Below are positions 44,360-52,439 of a stretch of DNA of 64,000 nucleotides, in pieces. Every line of letters begins with the position of its first letter. The stretch's first letter is position 1. This DNA is from Candidatus Aenigmatarchaeota archaeon (lineage in GTDB: Archaea; Aenigmatarchaeota; Aenigmatarchaeia; GW2011-AR5): positions 128,001 through 192,000 of the forward strand of contig JACQID010000004.1 of assembly GCA_016198685.1 (NCBI GenBank), read 5' to 3'. The translations under genes were made by a program, and so were the position numbers. The notes beneath the pieces were generated by a model that worked only from the letters and a program-made list of their open reading frames with translations, did no database searches and was not told the DNA's origin.

Positions 44360-44839
44360 TCAAATGCAATTCATTGATTTGCGTGCATGCGGATATTTTT
44401 TCATCGTATCGCGCAGGAGCGCATCTGCCGCATCAAACTTTTTTCTTTGACCAAGATAATCGTTGTCCCGCGTCAAAAGTTCCTTGAGCTTGTATGAATC
44501 AGAATCAGCTCCATGCACTTGAATTCTGTCTACATTGCCGTTGCCGTCAGTGTCGTGATAAAATTCTGCATCGCCAAACCGGTGGCCGATAGGAGAATAA
44601 ACATGCATCTCCTGCGAGCAGTCTGGATAGACCATATAGTCGACATGCCCAAAAGGACCTCTTGGATAGGAAATTAGGTGATATCCAGAAGTTCTCTGAT
44701 CCGCAGTGTTTTGCGTTTCATTGGAATTTTTGCTTAGTAAATAAGCTGCGCCAAGAATGCCAGGCATGGCTAGTATTGTAAGGCCAAGCAGCCAGTACAC
44801 GGGTTCCCCGGGAATCCTGATTTTCATAGAATTAAGCAA
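44360..44839 (-). CDS. Membrane-anchored hypothetical protein inserted between nusA and rps12
   Basis: N-terminal TM; DTDGNGNVD Ca-binding-like loop. Confidence 0.65.
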   Translation of the reverse strand: MLNSMKIRIPGEPVYWLLGLTILAMPGILGAAYLLSKNSNETQNTADQRTSGYHLISYPRGPFGHVDYMVYPDCSQEMHVYSPIGHRFGDAEFYHDTDGNGNVDRIQVHGADSDSYKLKELLTRDNDYLGQRKKFDAADALLRDTMKKYPHARKSMNCI

Positions 44840-45293: not shown

Positions 45294-45524
45294 CTACTCA
45301 AATCCTGCCATAGCTACAGGGAACGGCTTTCCGAGCTTGGTTGCAAGCTCTCTTTCATTTCCTTCAAATATGTGCACTTGCGTGTTGCCAAGTTTATTGA
45401 CAAGGTCTTGAGGGCAATTGTTTGCTACGATAACTTCCTTCACTTTTCCGGTTGCGATAGCCTTGATTATTTCTCTTGTGCCGATAACGGCTTTCTTTTC
45501 AGGAAGTTTCGAAATTGTTTCCAT
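45294..45524 (-). CDS. rpl30e: 50S ribosomal protein L30e
   Basis: VIGTRE..KA, VIVANNCP, ELATKLGKPFPV; conserved position. Confidence 0.88.
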   Translation of the reverse strand: METISKLPEKKAVIGTREIIKAIATGKVKEVIVANNCPQDLVNKLGNTQVHIFEGNERELATKLGKPFPVAMAGFE

Positions 45525-45559
45525 AGATTAATCATCCAGTCAAAGGATAAAAAGCTGAC

Positions 45560-46684
45560 TTACTTCTCCGCATCCTTGCCTTTTTTTATGCTTTCTCTCA
45601 TCTTCTGCATATCTATGGAGAGGTTCACAACGCCTGTTCCGATGGGCGCGACCTGCCCGACCATGACGTTTTCTATGACTCCAGTCATTTCATCGGCCTG
45701 TCCATAGAATGAAGCGTTGACAAGATGCTTCTTTGTTTCTTCGAAGTTAGCACGGGCAAGCACAGAGTATTTCTTTCCGGATACTCCGTATCTTCCAATG
45801 GATTTTATTGTTCCATCGAAAGTCATTGTATCAGCGAGCAGGTGCAAATACCTGTCATCGACATCTAATCCCTGCTCTTCGAGCGTATCTTTTGTTTCCA
45901 TGAAAATCATGTTGCGTGCAGCCTCAACGCCCAGAACCTCATAGACCTGGTAAAGGTCGTTTGTGACGGTCCTGGAAATGTCGACTTCTTCCATCTTGAA
46001 AACCTTCTCAAGATTGCTGCCGACTGTCTGAACTATCCAGTCTTCGCCTTCCTTGACCACGAGCACATTGGTGATTCCTTTTATGCCTGCCACATGGAAT
46101 GAAAGTATTTTGTTTCTGATCTTTCGCAGGTCCTTCTGGTCATCTTCTTTTGGCTTGACGTACACTTTGTTATCGCGGGCCGTTACTTCAGAACCTTTCA
46201 TGTATTTTTCTATGACCCTTTTTACCTCATCTTTATGGACCACATCGTCAAGTTCCAGTTCAATTTTCATGTCAATGAGATCTATTGAGTCGGATGTGAT
46301 AACGTCTGCGATTTTGAGTTCCTTCACCTTTGATGCAACTTCCTTTGCTTTCTCTTTGGTGTTATAGTTTGGCTTCAGGTATATTGTCATGTTTTTCTCG
46401 AACGTCTTGCGTGCATCAAAAATTTCTATGAGTCTTGGTAGTCCCTGCGTGACCTTGCTCAGTCTGTCGCTCTGCGATGCAAGCGTATAAGAACGCATGG
46501 TCATTTGCGTGGCCGGTTCAGAAAGGCTTTGAGCCGCTATTATGCCAATAGCTTCGCCCGGCTCGTAAAGGTATCTGTCCATGACCTCTTCAAGTTTCTT
46601 GAGCTTCTGTTCTCGCTCTTTGCCGGTAATGCCTTTCTTAATGCAATACTCATCAAATTTTTTCATGACGTTCTCAGGTATCAT
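45560..46684 (-). CDS. rpoA2: RNA polymerase subunit A'' (Rpo1C)
   Basis: [39 protein letters not shown]; start after GGTGA. Confidence 0.96.
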
Positions 46685-46688
46685 TTCA

Positions 46689-49148
46689 TCACCATCTATC
46701 AAAGTCTATCTTTCCTGCGTCGGACTTTGCGGGATCTACTCCATCGCCGCCGACGAAGAACTGGATTATGTGGCCCCTGCTGTTTCTTACTGTGCCGTCA
46801 TATTCAACGCGCAAATCCTGCAGTGCATTGACAAGTCTCCTCTCCATGTATCCGGAATGTCGCGTGTGAAGCGACTTATCCATGAGGTTTTCCCTCGAGT
46901 TCATGGCATCGAAGAAGAATTCAAACGGATCAAGGCTTTCTTTGTAACCGTGGGATACGAACCCTCTTGCCTTAAGGCCAAGGTCGCCGGCTGCAAAGTG
47001 CGACAGCGTCCTTCCTATGAATCCTCTGTGTATTCTTTCGCCTTCAAGCGCTTCCTGGCCGACGAAAGCGCACATCTGCGTCAGGTTAACGTAGCTGCCT
47101 CTTGCGCCGCTTACTGCCATTATGACTGAAGAGTTCAAGGGCAGATCCTTCTTGATTATGTCGCTTGCCTTGTTGGAAGCCTCTCCTCCAAGCTGCAGGA
47201 TTCTGCTCTCAAGCAACATTCTTGGATCCATGCCAGATGCCTTGTCTTCCTTGCCTTTGTGGTATTCCTTCACAAGAGTCTTTACTGCATTGTCATATTC
47301 TTCGGATATTTCTTCAAGCTTTTTCTTGCTCTTGTCGCTTATGTCTTCATCGCCGGACGATATGCTGAATCCTTTTTTGGATATGACTTCCAGTGCAAGT
47401 CGCGAAACTTTGTCAATGAAATCTCTGGCTTCTGCATGGGAATATTTCTTTTCTATGACATCTATAAGCTTGCCTTTCTTTTCTCCCAGTGCATTGTCGT
47501 CTATTACGCCCTTCTTCAGAGAGCCATTCTTTATTTCGACGGTCTCTCCGGAAGCGGATGTGTAGGTAATGTTGAAGTCCTTGGGAAGTATATAGCTGAA
47601 TATTTCTTTTCCTGTGTATTCGTCCTTGATTTCAAAGTCTTCTATACCTATGGCCGTAAGAAGTTCTGTCGCCTGTCTTCTGTTGAGCTTGGTTGTATCC
47701 TGCGTCAGAAGGAAGGAACCTGTTATATGGTCGTGCTTGCACGCGATGACAGGCTTTCCGTATCTTGGGGACCTGATGTGATTCTCAACTGCCATGAGCA
47801 TTTCAGCTTCAGTTCTGGCTTCCTCGGTTTGAGGAACGTGTATATTCATTTCGTCCCCGTCAAAGTCTGCATTGTAAGGTATTGTCACTGCCAGGGAGAG
47901 TCTGATGGTTCTATAAGGCATTATTCTGGCCTTGTGCGCCATCATGCTCATTCTGTGCAACGACGGCTGCCTGTTGACTATTACAATGTCTCCGTTGTCA
48001 AGGTGTCTTTCAACGATATATCCTGGCACTATTTCGTTGGATACGTCTTCCTTGTTTTCTTCTGTTATTTTCTTCCTTACGCCATCCGGCCTTATCACAT
48101 AATTAGCTCCCGGGTGCGTTGTCATGTTCTTTACGATTGATCTCATGTGTTCAAGGTTTAGGGTAGTTACTCTTGCAGGAATTGTCAGCTCTTTGGCTAT
48201 CTCAAGCGGTATGCCAACTTCGCTTATTGATAATCTGGGGTCGGGGGAGATGACCGTACGTGCCGAGAAGTTAACCCTTTTTCCGCTCAGGTTGCTTCTG
48301 AAGCGTCCTTCCTTCTTGCTGAGTCTCTGAACAAGCGTCTTCAGTGCCCTTCCGGATCTATGCCGTGCCGGCGGTAGCGTTGAGATTTCATTGCTCATCA
48401 AAGTAGAAACATGGTATTGTAAAAGTTCCCATATGTCTGCTATTATGAAGTCAGGAGCTCCAAGTTCGAGATTCTTTCTTAGTCTTTCATTTATTCTGAC
48501 TATGTCGACGAGCTTGTGCGTCAAATCGTCCTCGCTTCTCTCACCTGTTTCCAGCGTTATTGACGGCCTTACTGTCACCGGAGGCACAGGCAGTATCGTG
48601 AGTATGAGCCATTCGGGCCTGGTCTTTATTTTGAGGATTGCAAGATCATCATCGGTTATCTTTTCAAGGCGCTGTCTGACTTCTTCAGACGTTAGGTCCG
48701 TGTTGCCCTCTCTGTAGGAGGTAGGCTTGAAATAGGTGATTTCCTTTTGCTTCTCGCCGCATGCAGGGCATGTCTTGATCTTCTTCTTGTATATATGGGT
48801 CAATCTGTTGCCTTTGATCTTCTCTGATTCGTCCTTAGGAATAAGATTTGCAGAGCACTTTCTGCATGTCGATTTGAGAAGCATGTATATCTTCTTCCCG
48901 TAAAGCGGATGGACTATGGGCTTGGTAAGCTCAAGGTATCCGAAGTGGCCGAGGCATTGTCCTATTGTGCCGCCGCATGTCCTGCATCGAAGCCCCGGGT
49001 CAACGACACCAAGATGCAGATCAGCAAGACCGCCATCTATAGGATATCCGTCCGGGTCATAAAGCTCGGGTTGCTCTATCTTGATTGCGCTCATGTCCTT
49101 GATTATTTTTGGCGACAGGAATCCGAATTCTATGCTTTTGATTTTCAT
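46689..49148 (-). CDS. rpoA1: RNA polymerase subunit A' (Rpo1N)
   Basis: [11 protein letters not shown] catalytic motif, [23 protein letters not shown]. Confidence 0.98.
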
Positions 49149-49149
49149 A

Positions 49150-52100
49150 TTAATCACCCACTTTGACCTTGGGATAGACACCCAGGCACTTCAATTCGTC
49201 AAGCATAAGCTTGAATGCATAGCTCATTTCAACTTCATCGATCTTGGATTTGGTGCATACTGGGCAATATTTCTTACCCTTGACTTTGTCTTCAACCGCA
49301 AACATGCCGCACTTGCTGCAGATAGGTACAGTATACTTGTCACTGCTGAATCTTTCCTTGAGCAGCAGAGAAGCTCCGTGAGCAAGCAGGCAATCCTTCT
49401 CCATTTCTCCCAGTCTTAGGCCTCCCTGCTTTACTCTTCCTGCCGTAGGTTGCTTGGTGAGCAGTGTTACAGGACCTCTTGCTCTGGACTGCACCTTGTT
49501 TGCAACCATGTGGTGGAGCTTTTGGTAATAGCATGGTCCTACGAGTATCTGGGATTCGAAACGCTTGCCTGTTATACCGTCATACATGACTTCCTTGCCG
49601 TCATCTCTGAATCCAAGTTCTTCGAGATTCTTTCTCAGGTCCTCTTCTTTGATTCCGTTGAACGCAGATGCGTCAACTTTTTTCCCGCTTACAGCGGAGA
49701 CCTTCGCCGCCACTATCTCAAGCAGCTGGCCTAGAGTCATTCTGCTTGGTATTGCGTGCGGGTTCAATATAATGTCAGGCGTTATGCCGCTTGCCGTAAA
49801 TGGCATGTCCTCCTCAGGGAGTATCAATGCTATGACACCCTTTTGTCCGTGCCTGGATGCAAACTTGTCACCGAGTTCAGGGAGTCTTTCGCTTCTGACA
49901 TTTATCTTGACAAGCTTGTTTCCGCTCGACGTTTGGGTTAATATAACATTATCCACAACGCCTTCTTCTCCATAGCGTATTGTTTCAGATGTTTCTCTTC
50001 TGTTTTCTGTTTCGACCATGAAGCTTTCCATCGGGCCGAAGAATCTCAGAGGAGATATCTTGCCGACGATTACATCGCCTTCCTTAACATCAGTTTCGCG
50101 GTTTACTATGCCATCCTGTGACAGGTTTGCGTATGCTTCCTCGGAGCGATAGCCGGAAACGGCTTTGTCGGGTATTCTTATTTCGTCTTTTTCTATGCCC
50201 CAATATCTCATTTCCTCGGTTGAATAATCACGAAGGAAGTAGCTGTGGCCGAATCCTCTTTCAATTGATGCCTTGTTAAGTACTATTCCGTCTTCCATGT
50301 TGTAACCATGGAAGCTCATTATGGCTATGACGACATTATGACCCTGAGGATGAACCTTGAGGCCTACTTCGTCACCGACTATTGTGCTGACAAGAGGCAT
50401 CTGAGGATAAAGCAGAACATCTGCTTTCGTGTCTGCTCTCACGAGGAAGTTTGCTGCATAGAGTCCGAGCGACTGGCCGGACATCTTTGCACCGAAGTTT
50501 ACTCGGTCTCCTCTGTTGTGCGTCGGGAAAGGCACGAGTGATGCAGATAATCCTAGCATCACGCCAGGATTGATTTCCAGATGAGTATTTTCTTTTGTTA
50601 TGGCGCTTTCGTCTATGGCTACAAGTGCGTTGTTTTCCTCTTCTGCATCAAGGTATTCTATCACTCCTTCCCGGAGCAGGTCGTTCCAGCCTAATTCTTT
50701 GGAGATAACCTTTTCGCCCAAATCCTTGGTCATCTTAGACTTTCCGTTTTCAACTATTATCAGCGGTCTCTGGACTCTGCCTGCATCTGTGTTGATATGG
50801 ACTTCTGCAAATTCAGGAACCCATGATATGTTTACAGATGAGCTGATGTCTGAATTCCTTCTCTTCTGCTTTATCGCTTCAACGATCTTTTCTGGGTTGT
50901 CCGTTCCGCCGGCAATAAAGCCGTCAAGGAATATTGCATTGTCTCCGTTCTCCTTCTTGAGGAGCGATTCTATGACAGTCTTGTCCTTCTGCGTGGCAGT
51001 GTCTGTTATGATTGCGAATATTGCAAGGTATTTTCTCAAGCCTATGTTCACGCCTTCGGGCGTTTCTTCGGCGCAGAGTCTTCCCCAGTGCGTAGGATGA
51101 AGAGCTCTTGCTTCAAAATGCTCTTGGGAAGAGCTGAGAGGCGAAATGACGTTTCTCAGGTGAGCGACTGTTCTGACAAAGTTCGTTCTTTCGAGTCTTT
51201 GGCATACTCCAGTTCTTCCGCCTACCCACTGGCCTGTAGCCATGTGCGATATTATTCTCTTTGTCAGGTACTCGCTTTCGACAATAGACTGTATAGAAGG
51301 CATTTTGCCCCTCTTAACAAGCTTCTGGTAAGAATACACAATTCTGGACACAAGCCCGTATTTGCCGAGCAGTACGGAGCGGAACAGTATTTCAAAGAAA
51401 TCCGCGACCATTCGCAGCCTCTTGTTGCCATAATGGTCTATGTCCTGTTCTTCAACGTCGTTGAGTCCTAGTCTTATGACTTTTCTAACAACCTTGGTCA
51501 TGTATGTTGCCTTGGTTAATCTATCCTTCTTTGTCTGACCAAGGTGAGGCAAAAGATACTTGTCTAAAAGATCGTTTATTCTTTTGTCCCTGTATTCCTT
51601 CTGGGGTATCTTGATCTTCTTGCCAATATATTCCTTGGCATCATCGACGCTGTTGACGTTCGTTTCGTAAAGGTTGAAATATATTTCCTGCATTTCTCTT
51701 GGTTCCGTGGAAATCGATTCTATTATTTCCTTGTCAGTCTCAACTCCGAGCGCACGGAGTATGACAACAACCGGTATCTTCTTTATGTTGGCAAAAGAAA
51801 TCGTGACTATTCCGCCCTTCCTTTCAATGAGATGTCTCTGCACAAAGCCTGCGGATTCAGAGTTTATTCTTGCAGTTTCAACGCCGCCTCTTTTCTCAAT
51901 GATGGGTCTGTTGGAAAGAACTTCCTCCATCATGACGATGGCCCTTTCTGTTCCGTTTATTATAAAGTATCCGCCTGGGTCATCGGGGTCTTCTCCGGAT
52001 TCAATCAATTGGTCCCTGCCCATGCCTGATATCGTGCACAAGCCGGACTTAACCATGACAGGCAGATCGCCAATCTTGACTTCCTGAGCCTCCTGCTCAA

Positions 52101-52428
52101 CGCCGTTTATTACAGGAATCATTTCAATGAAAATAGGGGATGCATAAGTTAGGTTTCTTATTCGGCATTCGTTTGGCGTGACTGTTCTTACAGCGCCGTC
52201 TGCCTCCTTAATGTTGGGCTTGGGAATTCTGACTTTGCCTAAACGTATTTTAAACTCGGCAAGATCAGGCGTCTCAAGCTGGATTTCTCCTATGTCACCA
52301 AAAATCTTCTGAATACGTTTTTCGACGAATTCATTGAATGATTTTATGTGATGACCGTCAAAGCCAACCTGCTCTCTGAAACTGCCGACAAGAGACTTGT
52401 ATATTTTTGCGCTTTCATTCACTTGCAT
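49150..52428 (-). CDS. rpoB: RNA polymerase subunit B (unsplit Rpo2)
   Basis: GDKFASRHGQKG, NPHAIPSRMT, GGLRLGEME, C-terminal Zn ribbon. Confidence 0.98.
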   Translation of the reverse strand: MQVNESAKIYKSLVGSFREQVGFDGHHIKSFNEFVEKRIQKIFGDIGEIQLETPDLAEFKIRLGKVRIPKPNIKEADGAVRTVTPNECRIRNLTYASPIFIEMIPVINGVEQEAQEVKIGDLPVMVKSGLCTISGMGRDQLIESGEDPDDPGGYFIINGTERAIVMMEEVLSNRPIIEKRGGVETARINSESAGFVQRHLIERKGGIVTISFANIKKIPVVVILRALGVETDKEIIESISTEPREMQEIYFNLYETNVNSVDDAKEYIGKKIKIPQKEYRDKRINDLLDKYLLPHLGQTKKDRLTKATYMTKVVRKVIRLGLNDVEEQDIDHYGNKRLRMVADFFEILFRSVLLGKYGLVSRIVYSYQKLVKRGKMPSIQSIVESEYLTKRIISHMATGQWVGGRTGVCQRLERTNFVRTVAHLRNVISPLSSSQEHFEARALHPTHWGRLCAEETPEGVNIGLRKYLAIFAIITDTATQKDKTVIESLLKKENGDNAIFLDGFIAGGTDNPEKIVEAIKQKRRNSDISSSVNISWVPEFAEVHINTDAGRVQRPLIIVENGKSKMTKDLGEKVISKELGWNDLLREGVIEYLDAEEENNALVAIDESAITKENTHLEINPGVMLGLSASLVPFPTHNRGDRVNFGAKMSGQSLGLYAANFLVRADTKADVLLYPQMPLVSTIVGDEVGLKVHPQGHNVVIAIMSFHGYNMEDGIVLNKASIERGFGHSYFLRDYSTEEMRYWGIEKDEIRIPDKAVSGYRSEEAYANLSQDGIVNRETDVKEGDVIVGKISPLRFFGPMESFMVETENRRETSETIRYGEEGVVDNVILTQTSSGNKLVKINVRSERLPELGDKFASRHGQKGVIALILPEEDMPFTASGITPDIILNPHAIPSRMTLGQLLEIVAAKVSAVSGKKVDASAFNGIKEEDLRKNLEELGFRDDGKEVMYDGITGKRFESQILVGPCYYQKLHHMVANKVQSRARGPVTLLTKQPTAGRVKQGGLRLGEMEKDCLLAHGASLLLKERFSSDKYTVPICSKCGMFAVEDKVKGKKYCPVCTKSKIDEVEMSYAFKLMLDELKCLGVYPKVKVGD

Positions 52429-52439
52429 ATGATTCACCT

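Follow-up and report, generated by a model that had tools for sequence, protein, structure and literature searches.

An archaeal order whose RNA polymerase lacks the trigger-loop histidine

The analysis of a 64,000-nt window of archaeal DNA, that is, the whole stretch considered here, revealed that the trigger loop (TL) of its RNA polymerase subunit RpoA'' lacks the histidine that contacts the beta-phosphate of the NTP (Rpb1 H1085) and carries a threonine, Thr73, instead. The loss of the His, which the initial annotation of this DNA had pointed out, proved to be real; it is not peculiar to a single genome but is fixed in a whole order-level clade of the Aenigmatarchaeota, DPANN archaea found in groundwater. 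The replacement is single-copy, monophyletic and under strong purifying selection. It is an archaeal, order-wide loss of the TL His with identifiable co-substitutions, and as such it is a natural experiment and not a new kind of system.

The rpoA'' (Rpo1C) gene occupies positions 45560..46702 of the minus strand, on which all the features described below also lie. It has 380 codons when counted from a TTG, and its true start is likely to be the ATG at 46684-46682, 4 nt past the rpoA' stop codon. The protein matched Pfam PF04998 (RNA_pol_Rpb1_5) with 151.1 bits (cut-off 28.5, E 5.5e-44), a family assignment for which the TL His is a conserved Rpo1C feature and not a criterion of membership. Residues 8-366 were aligned by HMMER with the solved Rpo1C chains 36rp_C, 36ro_C and 4qiw_C (E 3e-77 to 6e-76). 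Against canonical archaeal Rpo1C the whole protein, GLPRL hinge included, aligns from one end to the other. Homologues are 365-375 aa long. A single copy of rpoA'' is present in the own genome, an assembly of 935 kb (0.93 Mb) in 8 contigs that is 94% complete.

The neighboring genes form a polymerase operon. Open reading frames and Pfam matches gave the order rpoH-like ORF (78 codons), rpoB, rpoA', rpoA'', a NusA-type KH gene, S12 and S7, so that the rpoH-like ORF is upstream of rpoB and the last three genes are downstream of rpoA''. The rpoA' (Rpo1N) gene is at 46689..49181 (830 codons, five Rpb1 domains) and rpoB, which is unsplit, at 49150..52437 (1095 codons). The NADFDGD motif, reported earlier as intact, was indeed read in RpoA' at 47853-47873, and the NTP-binding motifs of RpoB, GDKFASRHGQKG, PSRMT and GDRVN, are preserved. 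All 19 sampled His-less genomes have an unsplit rpoB, and of the phylum's His-bearing families about half have the gene split into B'' and B'. An ORF of 159 codons at 44360-44839, between the NusA-type KH gene and rps12, has no Pfam match, and the 258-nt gap at 45302-45559 yielded no L30e gene, which is usual at this place.

The TL comprises RpoA'' residues 59-91 (46430..46528), as located in the DNA, in the translation and in the alignment to solved chains. The same three sources confirmed the annotated change of His to Thr73, which is encoded by ACG at 46484..46486. The position of Thr73 is that of Rpb1 H1085, E. coli beta' H936 and P. furiosus A'' H87. The residue falls under the His of TFH[FY]AG in the solved archaeal Rpo1C chains (HMMER, E about 1e-77) and aligns with the TL His of both archaeal and eukaryotic solved polymerases. 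The nucleotide-interacting Gln, Met and Arg of the TL are kept, with TQMTMR aligned at the Rpb1 Q1078, L1081 and N1082 positions, and the distance from these upstream conserved residues to Thr73 is the same as in canonical enzymes. Since the spacing is unchanged, no other His can be shifted into the catalytic position.

Further changes surround Thr73. The Ala-Gly linker (Rpb1 A1087-G1088) is replaced by Ala-Ser in the window and by Ala-Ser or Ala-Thr across the clade, the Gly position being taken here by Ser76 (46475..46477). The tip of the loop, QSDRLS (46457..46474), has six residues against four in canonical archaeal loops and in those of His-bearing sisters; gap columns of the alignment place the two-residue insertion after Thr73, in the loop tip. 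Ser71 (46490..46492) is equivalent to Rpb1 T1083 and stands where 17 of 20 His-bearing genomes have Thr.

The assembly was checked against Logan contigs of three metagenome runs on groundwater, possibly the very samples that it came from. The contigs matched 46300-46700 with zero differences at word depths of 138, 117 and 14. Co-occurring relatives vary at 46481 and 46487, and both variants are synonymous. None of the public runs listed as containing this sequence is an RNA run. The same loop was found in more than 140 independent assemblies. As the trait is fixed in an order-level clade, the raw reads proposed by the initial annotation are not the decisive test.

The nearest homologues of RpoA'' are named Candidatus Aenigmarchaeota or Aenigmatarchaeota, and the named genome records among them are groundwater MAGs. 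The His is absent from all 121 nearest database homologues (58-100% identity), of which 105 have Thr, 15 Ile and one Arg at this position. The linker is Ala-Ser in 104 and Ala-Thr in 17 of these proteins, and every one of the 121 has a six-residue tip. To place the change within the phylum we used a sample of 201 genomes, in 153 of which the TL could be read. The His was absent in 28/28 genomes of the own order (families f1-f6), and together with the 121 homologues this excludes chance. In the other orders it was present in 123 of 125 genomes, within MR[TS]YH.AG, the remaining two having Gln. A library of 1.8 billion proteins, clustered at 50% identity, was compared as well: of its 150 nearest clusters, the His was absent only in the five nearest, and the remaining clusters with a visible loop read [FYK]H. 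In those genomes of the order whose TL was captured by script, position 73 is encoded by ACG (7), ACT (7), ACA (6) and ACC (5), and once by ATA. All four Thr codons are thus used about equally, which argues for selection on the amino acid and not for recent shared ancestry.

The two Gln genomes, G039 (L100) and G115 (L103), belong to genus g48 of family f7 and read MRSYQLAG. Linker (Ala-Gly) and loop length are normal in both, and the His is retained in the family's other sampled genus (G001, L060). In genus g48 the phylum has thus lost the TL His a second time, independently and with minimal change.

Two other features of these genes were observed in the sample. In many relatives the TL is interrupted by an intein that separates TQM from TMR (TQM/C or S at the first junction, HN/TMRSY at the second). 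They include L072, a 93% identical relative, as well as L009-L013, L017, L018, L027, L047, P0072 and P0123. The inteins are about 180 to about 460 residues long; none is present in the window gene, and His-bearing lineages have inteins at the same TQM/TMR junction too. Secondly, RpoA' and RpoA'' are fused in one ORF in the His-less family f4 (L045 / L029 of G151; P0125, 1178 aa), reversing the usual archaeal split. In His-bearing orders, stop-free frames join RpoB' with RpoA' (about 1430 aa) or the whole of RpoB with RpoA' (1922 aa) in L052 (G107), L058 (G010) and L057 (G129), and these may be true fusions.

The origin of the replacement was analyzed in a tree built from RpoB, RpoA' and RpoA'' (2254 columns) with the TL masked. 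The 19 His-less genomes formed one clade (support 0.79), and the sister of this clade is the His-bearing G175 (L049; support 0.999). Because the His-less genomes are monophyletic and their sister is His-bearing, the loss happened once.

A large-subunit alignment of the 19 His-less and 20 His-bearing genomes, the latter one per family, was then screened for positions that changed along with the His. The 895 columns screened were those in which the His-bearing orders are conserved and the nearest sister has kept the ancestral residue. On the branch leading to the His-less clade just 10 of them changed, and of the 10, five are in the TL, the bridge helix or the funnel helix alpha-21. These are Thr to Ser71, His to Thr73 and Gly to Ser76 in A'', and Leu to Gly/Ala/Ser665 and Gly to Asn765 in A'. 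Compared with the other conserved columns, the clustering has an odds ratio of 12 (one-sided Fisher p 5e-4), a figure for regions picked after the data were seen, three of the five sites belonging to the very TL by which the clade is defined, and all changes sharing one branch. The clustering at the docking surfaces of the TL is suggestive of co-evolution with the His loss; co-evolution is not statistically establishable because the co-substitutions, all on one branch, amount to a single event.

The individual sites are as follows. The linker position is Ser or Thr in 19/19 His-less genomes and Gly in 19/20 His-bearing ones. Residue 665 (Gly in the window, 47187..47189) occupies a conserved Leu position of funnel helix alpha-21, as alignment with 4qiw_A shows; every one of the 19 His-less genomes has Gly, Ala or Ser there, and the His-bearing set has Leu (18), Ile (1) and Val (1). 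The residue corresponds to the Leu of avLAEARDNAG of T. kodakarensis and, by the R726 and G730 landmarks quoted in PMC5127505, to Rpb1 L722. In the bridge helix of RpoA', aligned at 46821..46919, the clade-specific Asn765 (46887-46889) replaces the second Gly of GGREGL, as judged by alignment to the T. kodakarensis and P. furiosus proteins. Ser762 (46896-46898) of the same helix is fixed in the clade and is also found in some His-bearing genomes. A relaxed screen flagged Ile434 (47880..47882), two residues before the Tyr of PYNADFDGD; this position is Pro in canonical archaeal enzymes and Pro, Thr or Ala in His-bearing sisters. Alignment of RpoB gave the clade-specific Cys412 (51202-51204) and Gln556 (50770-50772).

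Several other candidate correlates were considered and rejected. The initial annotation had listed, next to the His loss, a change of hinge glycines to Ser/Ala, here GEPG to SEPA. The SEPA sequence is present, but it is not linked to the His loss, as SEPATQ is common to His-bearing lineages, both sister orders and other small archaea. It is the linker Gly (the G1088 equivalent, here Ser76) that, unlike the GEPG/SEPA glycines, changed together with the His. A general rewiring of the bridge helix was likewise set aside: most of its divergence is common to His-bearing orders, with only Asn765 being specific. The divergence of this helix from its near-invariant canonical sequence is phylum-wide. 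The same applies to the RpoB segment NRGDRVNFGAKMSGQ, which His-bearing orders share and which is therefore not linked to the His loss. RpoB residues 640-660 read HNRGDRVNFGAKMSGQ, again a phylum-wide divergence; in other archaea and yeast this region reads HNQSPRNTYQSAMGKQ. Finally, a His just ahead of GLPRL (KVTH), considered as a compensating residue, occurs in no more than a part of family f1, and in the window its place is taken by Gln.

Whether the role of the TL His is chemical or merely steric has been debated for more than ten years. Structural papers of 2024 and 2026 describe the residue as invariant or "universally conserved" in bacteria, archaea and eukaryotes (PMC11343019, PMC13198411), and the 2026 cryo-EM study finds it purely coordinating, yet calls it universally conserved (PMC13198411). 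Our literature search found no paper on natural TL His loss in archaea, DPANN or CPR organisms. In P. furiosus, A'' H87A abolished promoter-directed transcription and lowered kpol 12-fold and fidelity about 25-fold, while H87 was not required for intrinsic or TFS-stimulated cleavage (PMC3737540). In yeast, the substitutions of H1085 by A, N, D or F are lethal, that by Gln is mildly defective and that by Leu is healthy (PMC5127505); the same paper describes A1087 and G1088 as occupying a narrow pocket flanked by the funnel and bridge helices, with G1088A lethal. No phenotype of H1085T was found in the accessible part of the yeast TL variant literature. The isosteric E. coli H936Q has only minor effects, as cited in PMC13198411.

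The canonical archaeal Rpo1C (P. furiosus 8cro, T. kodakarensis 4qiw, Sulfolobus/Saccharolobus 2waq and 2pmz) is the same subunit with the same fold, length and operon position. In comparison, the clade has Thr for His87, Ser for the linker Gly and a tip longer by two residues, as well as matching changes in the bridge and funnel helices of RpoA'. The engineered P. furiosus H87A enzyme is dead in initiation, whereas the His-less variant is the sole, conserved polymerase of an order. Yeast Rpb1 H1085L and H1085Q (PMC5127505, PMC12391331) and E. coli H936Q resemble the clade in that a non-basic side chain at the His site is compatible with life or near-normal catalysis, which is the ground for regarding the His as a positional catalyst. 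However, those mutations were made singly in the laboratory, carry fitness costs and show strong epistasis, and the change in the clade is natural and ancient, introduces a smaller, beta-branched residue (Thr or Ile), and goes together with the linker, tip, funnel-helix and bridge-helix changes. In plant Pol IV (NRPD1 Ser898, PMC11343019), likewise a natural multisubunit polymerase, the TL His is replaced by a small residue with a hydroxyl group. Unlike the clade enzyme, Pol IV is a specialised paralogue beside Pol II, has lost other NTP-contacting TL residues and has a TL without substrate contact. The clade enzyme, with Gln, Met and Arg retained and no second rpoA'' beside it, is the cell's sole polymerase, and so its TL is not a Pol IV-like degenerate one.

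Based on these observations we consider it likely, with a probability of roughly three in four, that the clade has a working polymerase in which the contact made by the His is dispensable and the docking pocket of the TL is repacked. The ancestor of the clade would have replaced the TL His by Thr once, a few members changing later to Ile or Arg. The TL would close on the substrate as usual, with the NTP positioned by the retained Gln, Met and Arg together with Lys/Arg residues of RpoB. A polar side chain on the beta-phosphate would no longer be needed, which fits both the tolerance of Thr and Ile at this position and the published positional and largely steric role of the His. The co-located changes may repack the tight pocket of the funnel and bridge helices that receives the linker when the TL is closed: with the funnel helix hollowed and the bridge helix altered, there could be room for the bulkier linker and the longer tip, and such a pocket would let a His-less loop work in the background of this clade. 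That residues 665 and 765 contact the linker is suggested by the alignment and by the published description of the yeast pocket, and the nearby co-substitutions look compensatory. Purifying selection and single-copy status suggest that the enzyme is catalytically active, as the initial annotation had anticipated; its accompanying proposal of altered active-site chemistry stays a conjecture, and the current literature treats the His as a positional and not a chemical catalyst. The rate or fidelity of the polymerase is probably modestly altered. The evidence counting against this explanation is that H87A in P. furiosus abolishes promoter-directed transcription and H1085 A/N/D/F are lethal in yeast, and hence a small side chain at the His site is not tolerated in canonical backgrounds.

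Uncompensated degradation, in which drift removed the His from a slow-growing symbiont with a small genome that tolerates a slower or sloppier polymerase, and in which the other changes on the branch are unrelated, appears unlikely. The tiny genome (0.93 Mb) would suit it, as would the tolerance of Thr, Ile and even Arg at position 73, the change of His to Gln with an otherwise unaltered TL in a second lineage of the phylum, and the slow, error-prone Pol IV with Ser at the site (PMC11343019). Against this, MRSY[T/I][LM]A[ST] and the fixed six-residue tip are kept across proteins that are 50-100% identical while synonymous change is saturated. Half of the few changes fixed on the branch cluster around the docking site of the TL, and a lone small-residue substitution abolishes initiation in the P. 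furiosus enzyme (PMC3737540).

It is quite unlikely that the order has rebuilt the TL docking site in a way that gives a different closing mechanism or kinetic regime, or that protects from a natural inhibitor wedging the TL against the funnel and bridge helices. The changed elements presumably correspond to those that form the alpha-amanitin pocket of Pol II.

Functional replacement, with the phosphate contact taken over by the tip residues Arg80 or Lys83, by a His of the bridge helix or by a secondary-channel factor such as a second TFS paralogue, is distinctly improbable. Two extra residues lengthen the tip, and family f1 conserves an Arg within it, but f3 (one genome) and f4 (ASLVGSITK or the like) have no such Arg. 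No member of the His-less clade departs from Lys83, but the position is basic or polar in His-bearing sisters as well, and the His residues of the bridge helix are either common to His-bearing orders or unconserved across the clade. The own genome encodes two TFS-type proteins with an acidic DE hairpin. However, not all families of the order have a second TFS, and some outside it do: it is common in f1 and f4, absent from f2, f3, f5 and f6, which have one, and present in some His-bearing families, and it was rejected as a correlate of the His loss. The two TFS/TFIIS-type zinc-ribbon proteins of the own genome lie outside the window, at G000:C6:123014-123130 (L069) and 105772-105885 (L070); they are 104 and 116 aa long with the acidic hairpins SSDEP and GDDEP.

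Lastly, an artefact, be it an assembly or sequencing error, a misalignment, a pseudogene or a spare paralogue, is effectively refuted by the identical contigs at high depth in several runs, the independent assemblies with the same loop, the intact frame of a single-copy gene in a conserved operon, and the unchanged spacing of Q, M and R to Thr. No observation in its favor came to light.

The repacking of the docking pocket around a dispensable His contact remains our preferred explanation, and the order provides a natural test of what the TL His does. An archaeal order with Thr or Ile in its sole polymerase is a natural counter-example to the "universally conserved" TL His, and it supports the positional, steric view of this residue. 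The Gln of genus g48 adds a further natural allele at the same site. The positions that changed along with the His, namely the linker, the length of the tip, the funnel-helix Leu and the bridge-helix Gly, make a short testable list of substitutions, and grafting them into a recombinant archaeal RNA polymerase could turn a dead His mutant into a working enzyme. If a rebuilt docking site were true, then together with the independent loss of His to Gln the Aenigmatarchaeota would represent a natural allelic series for TL catalysis.
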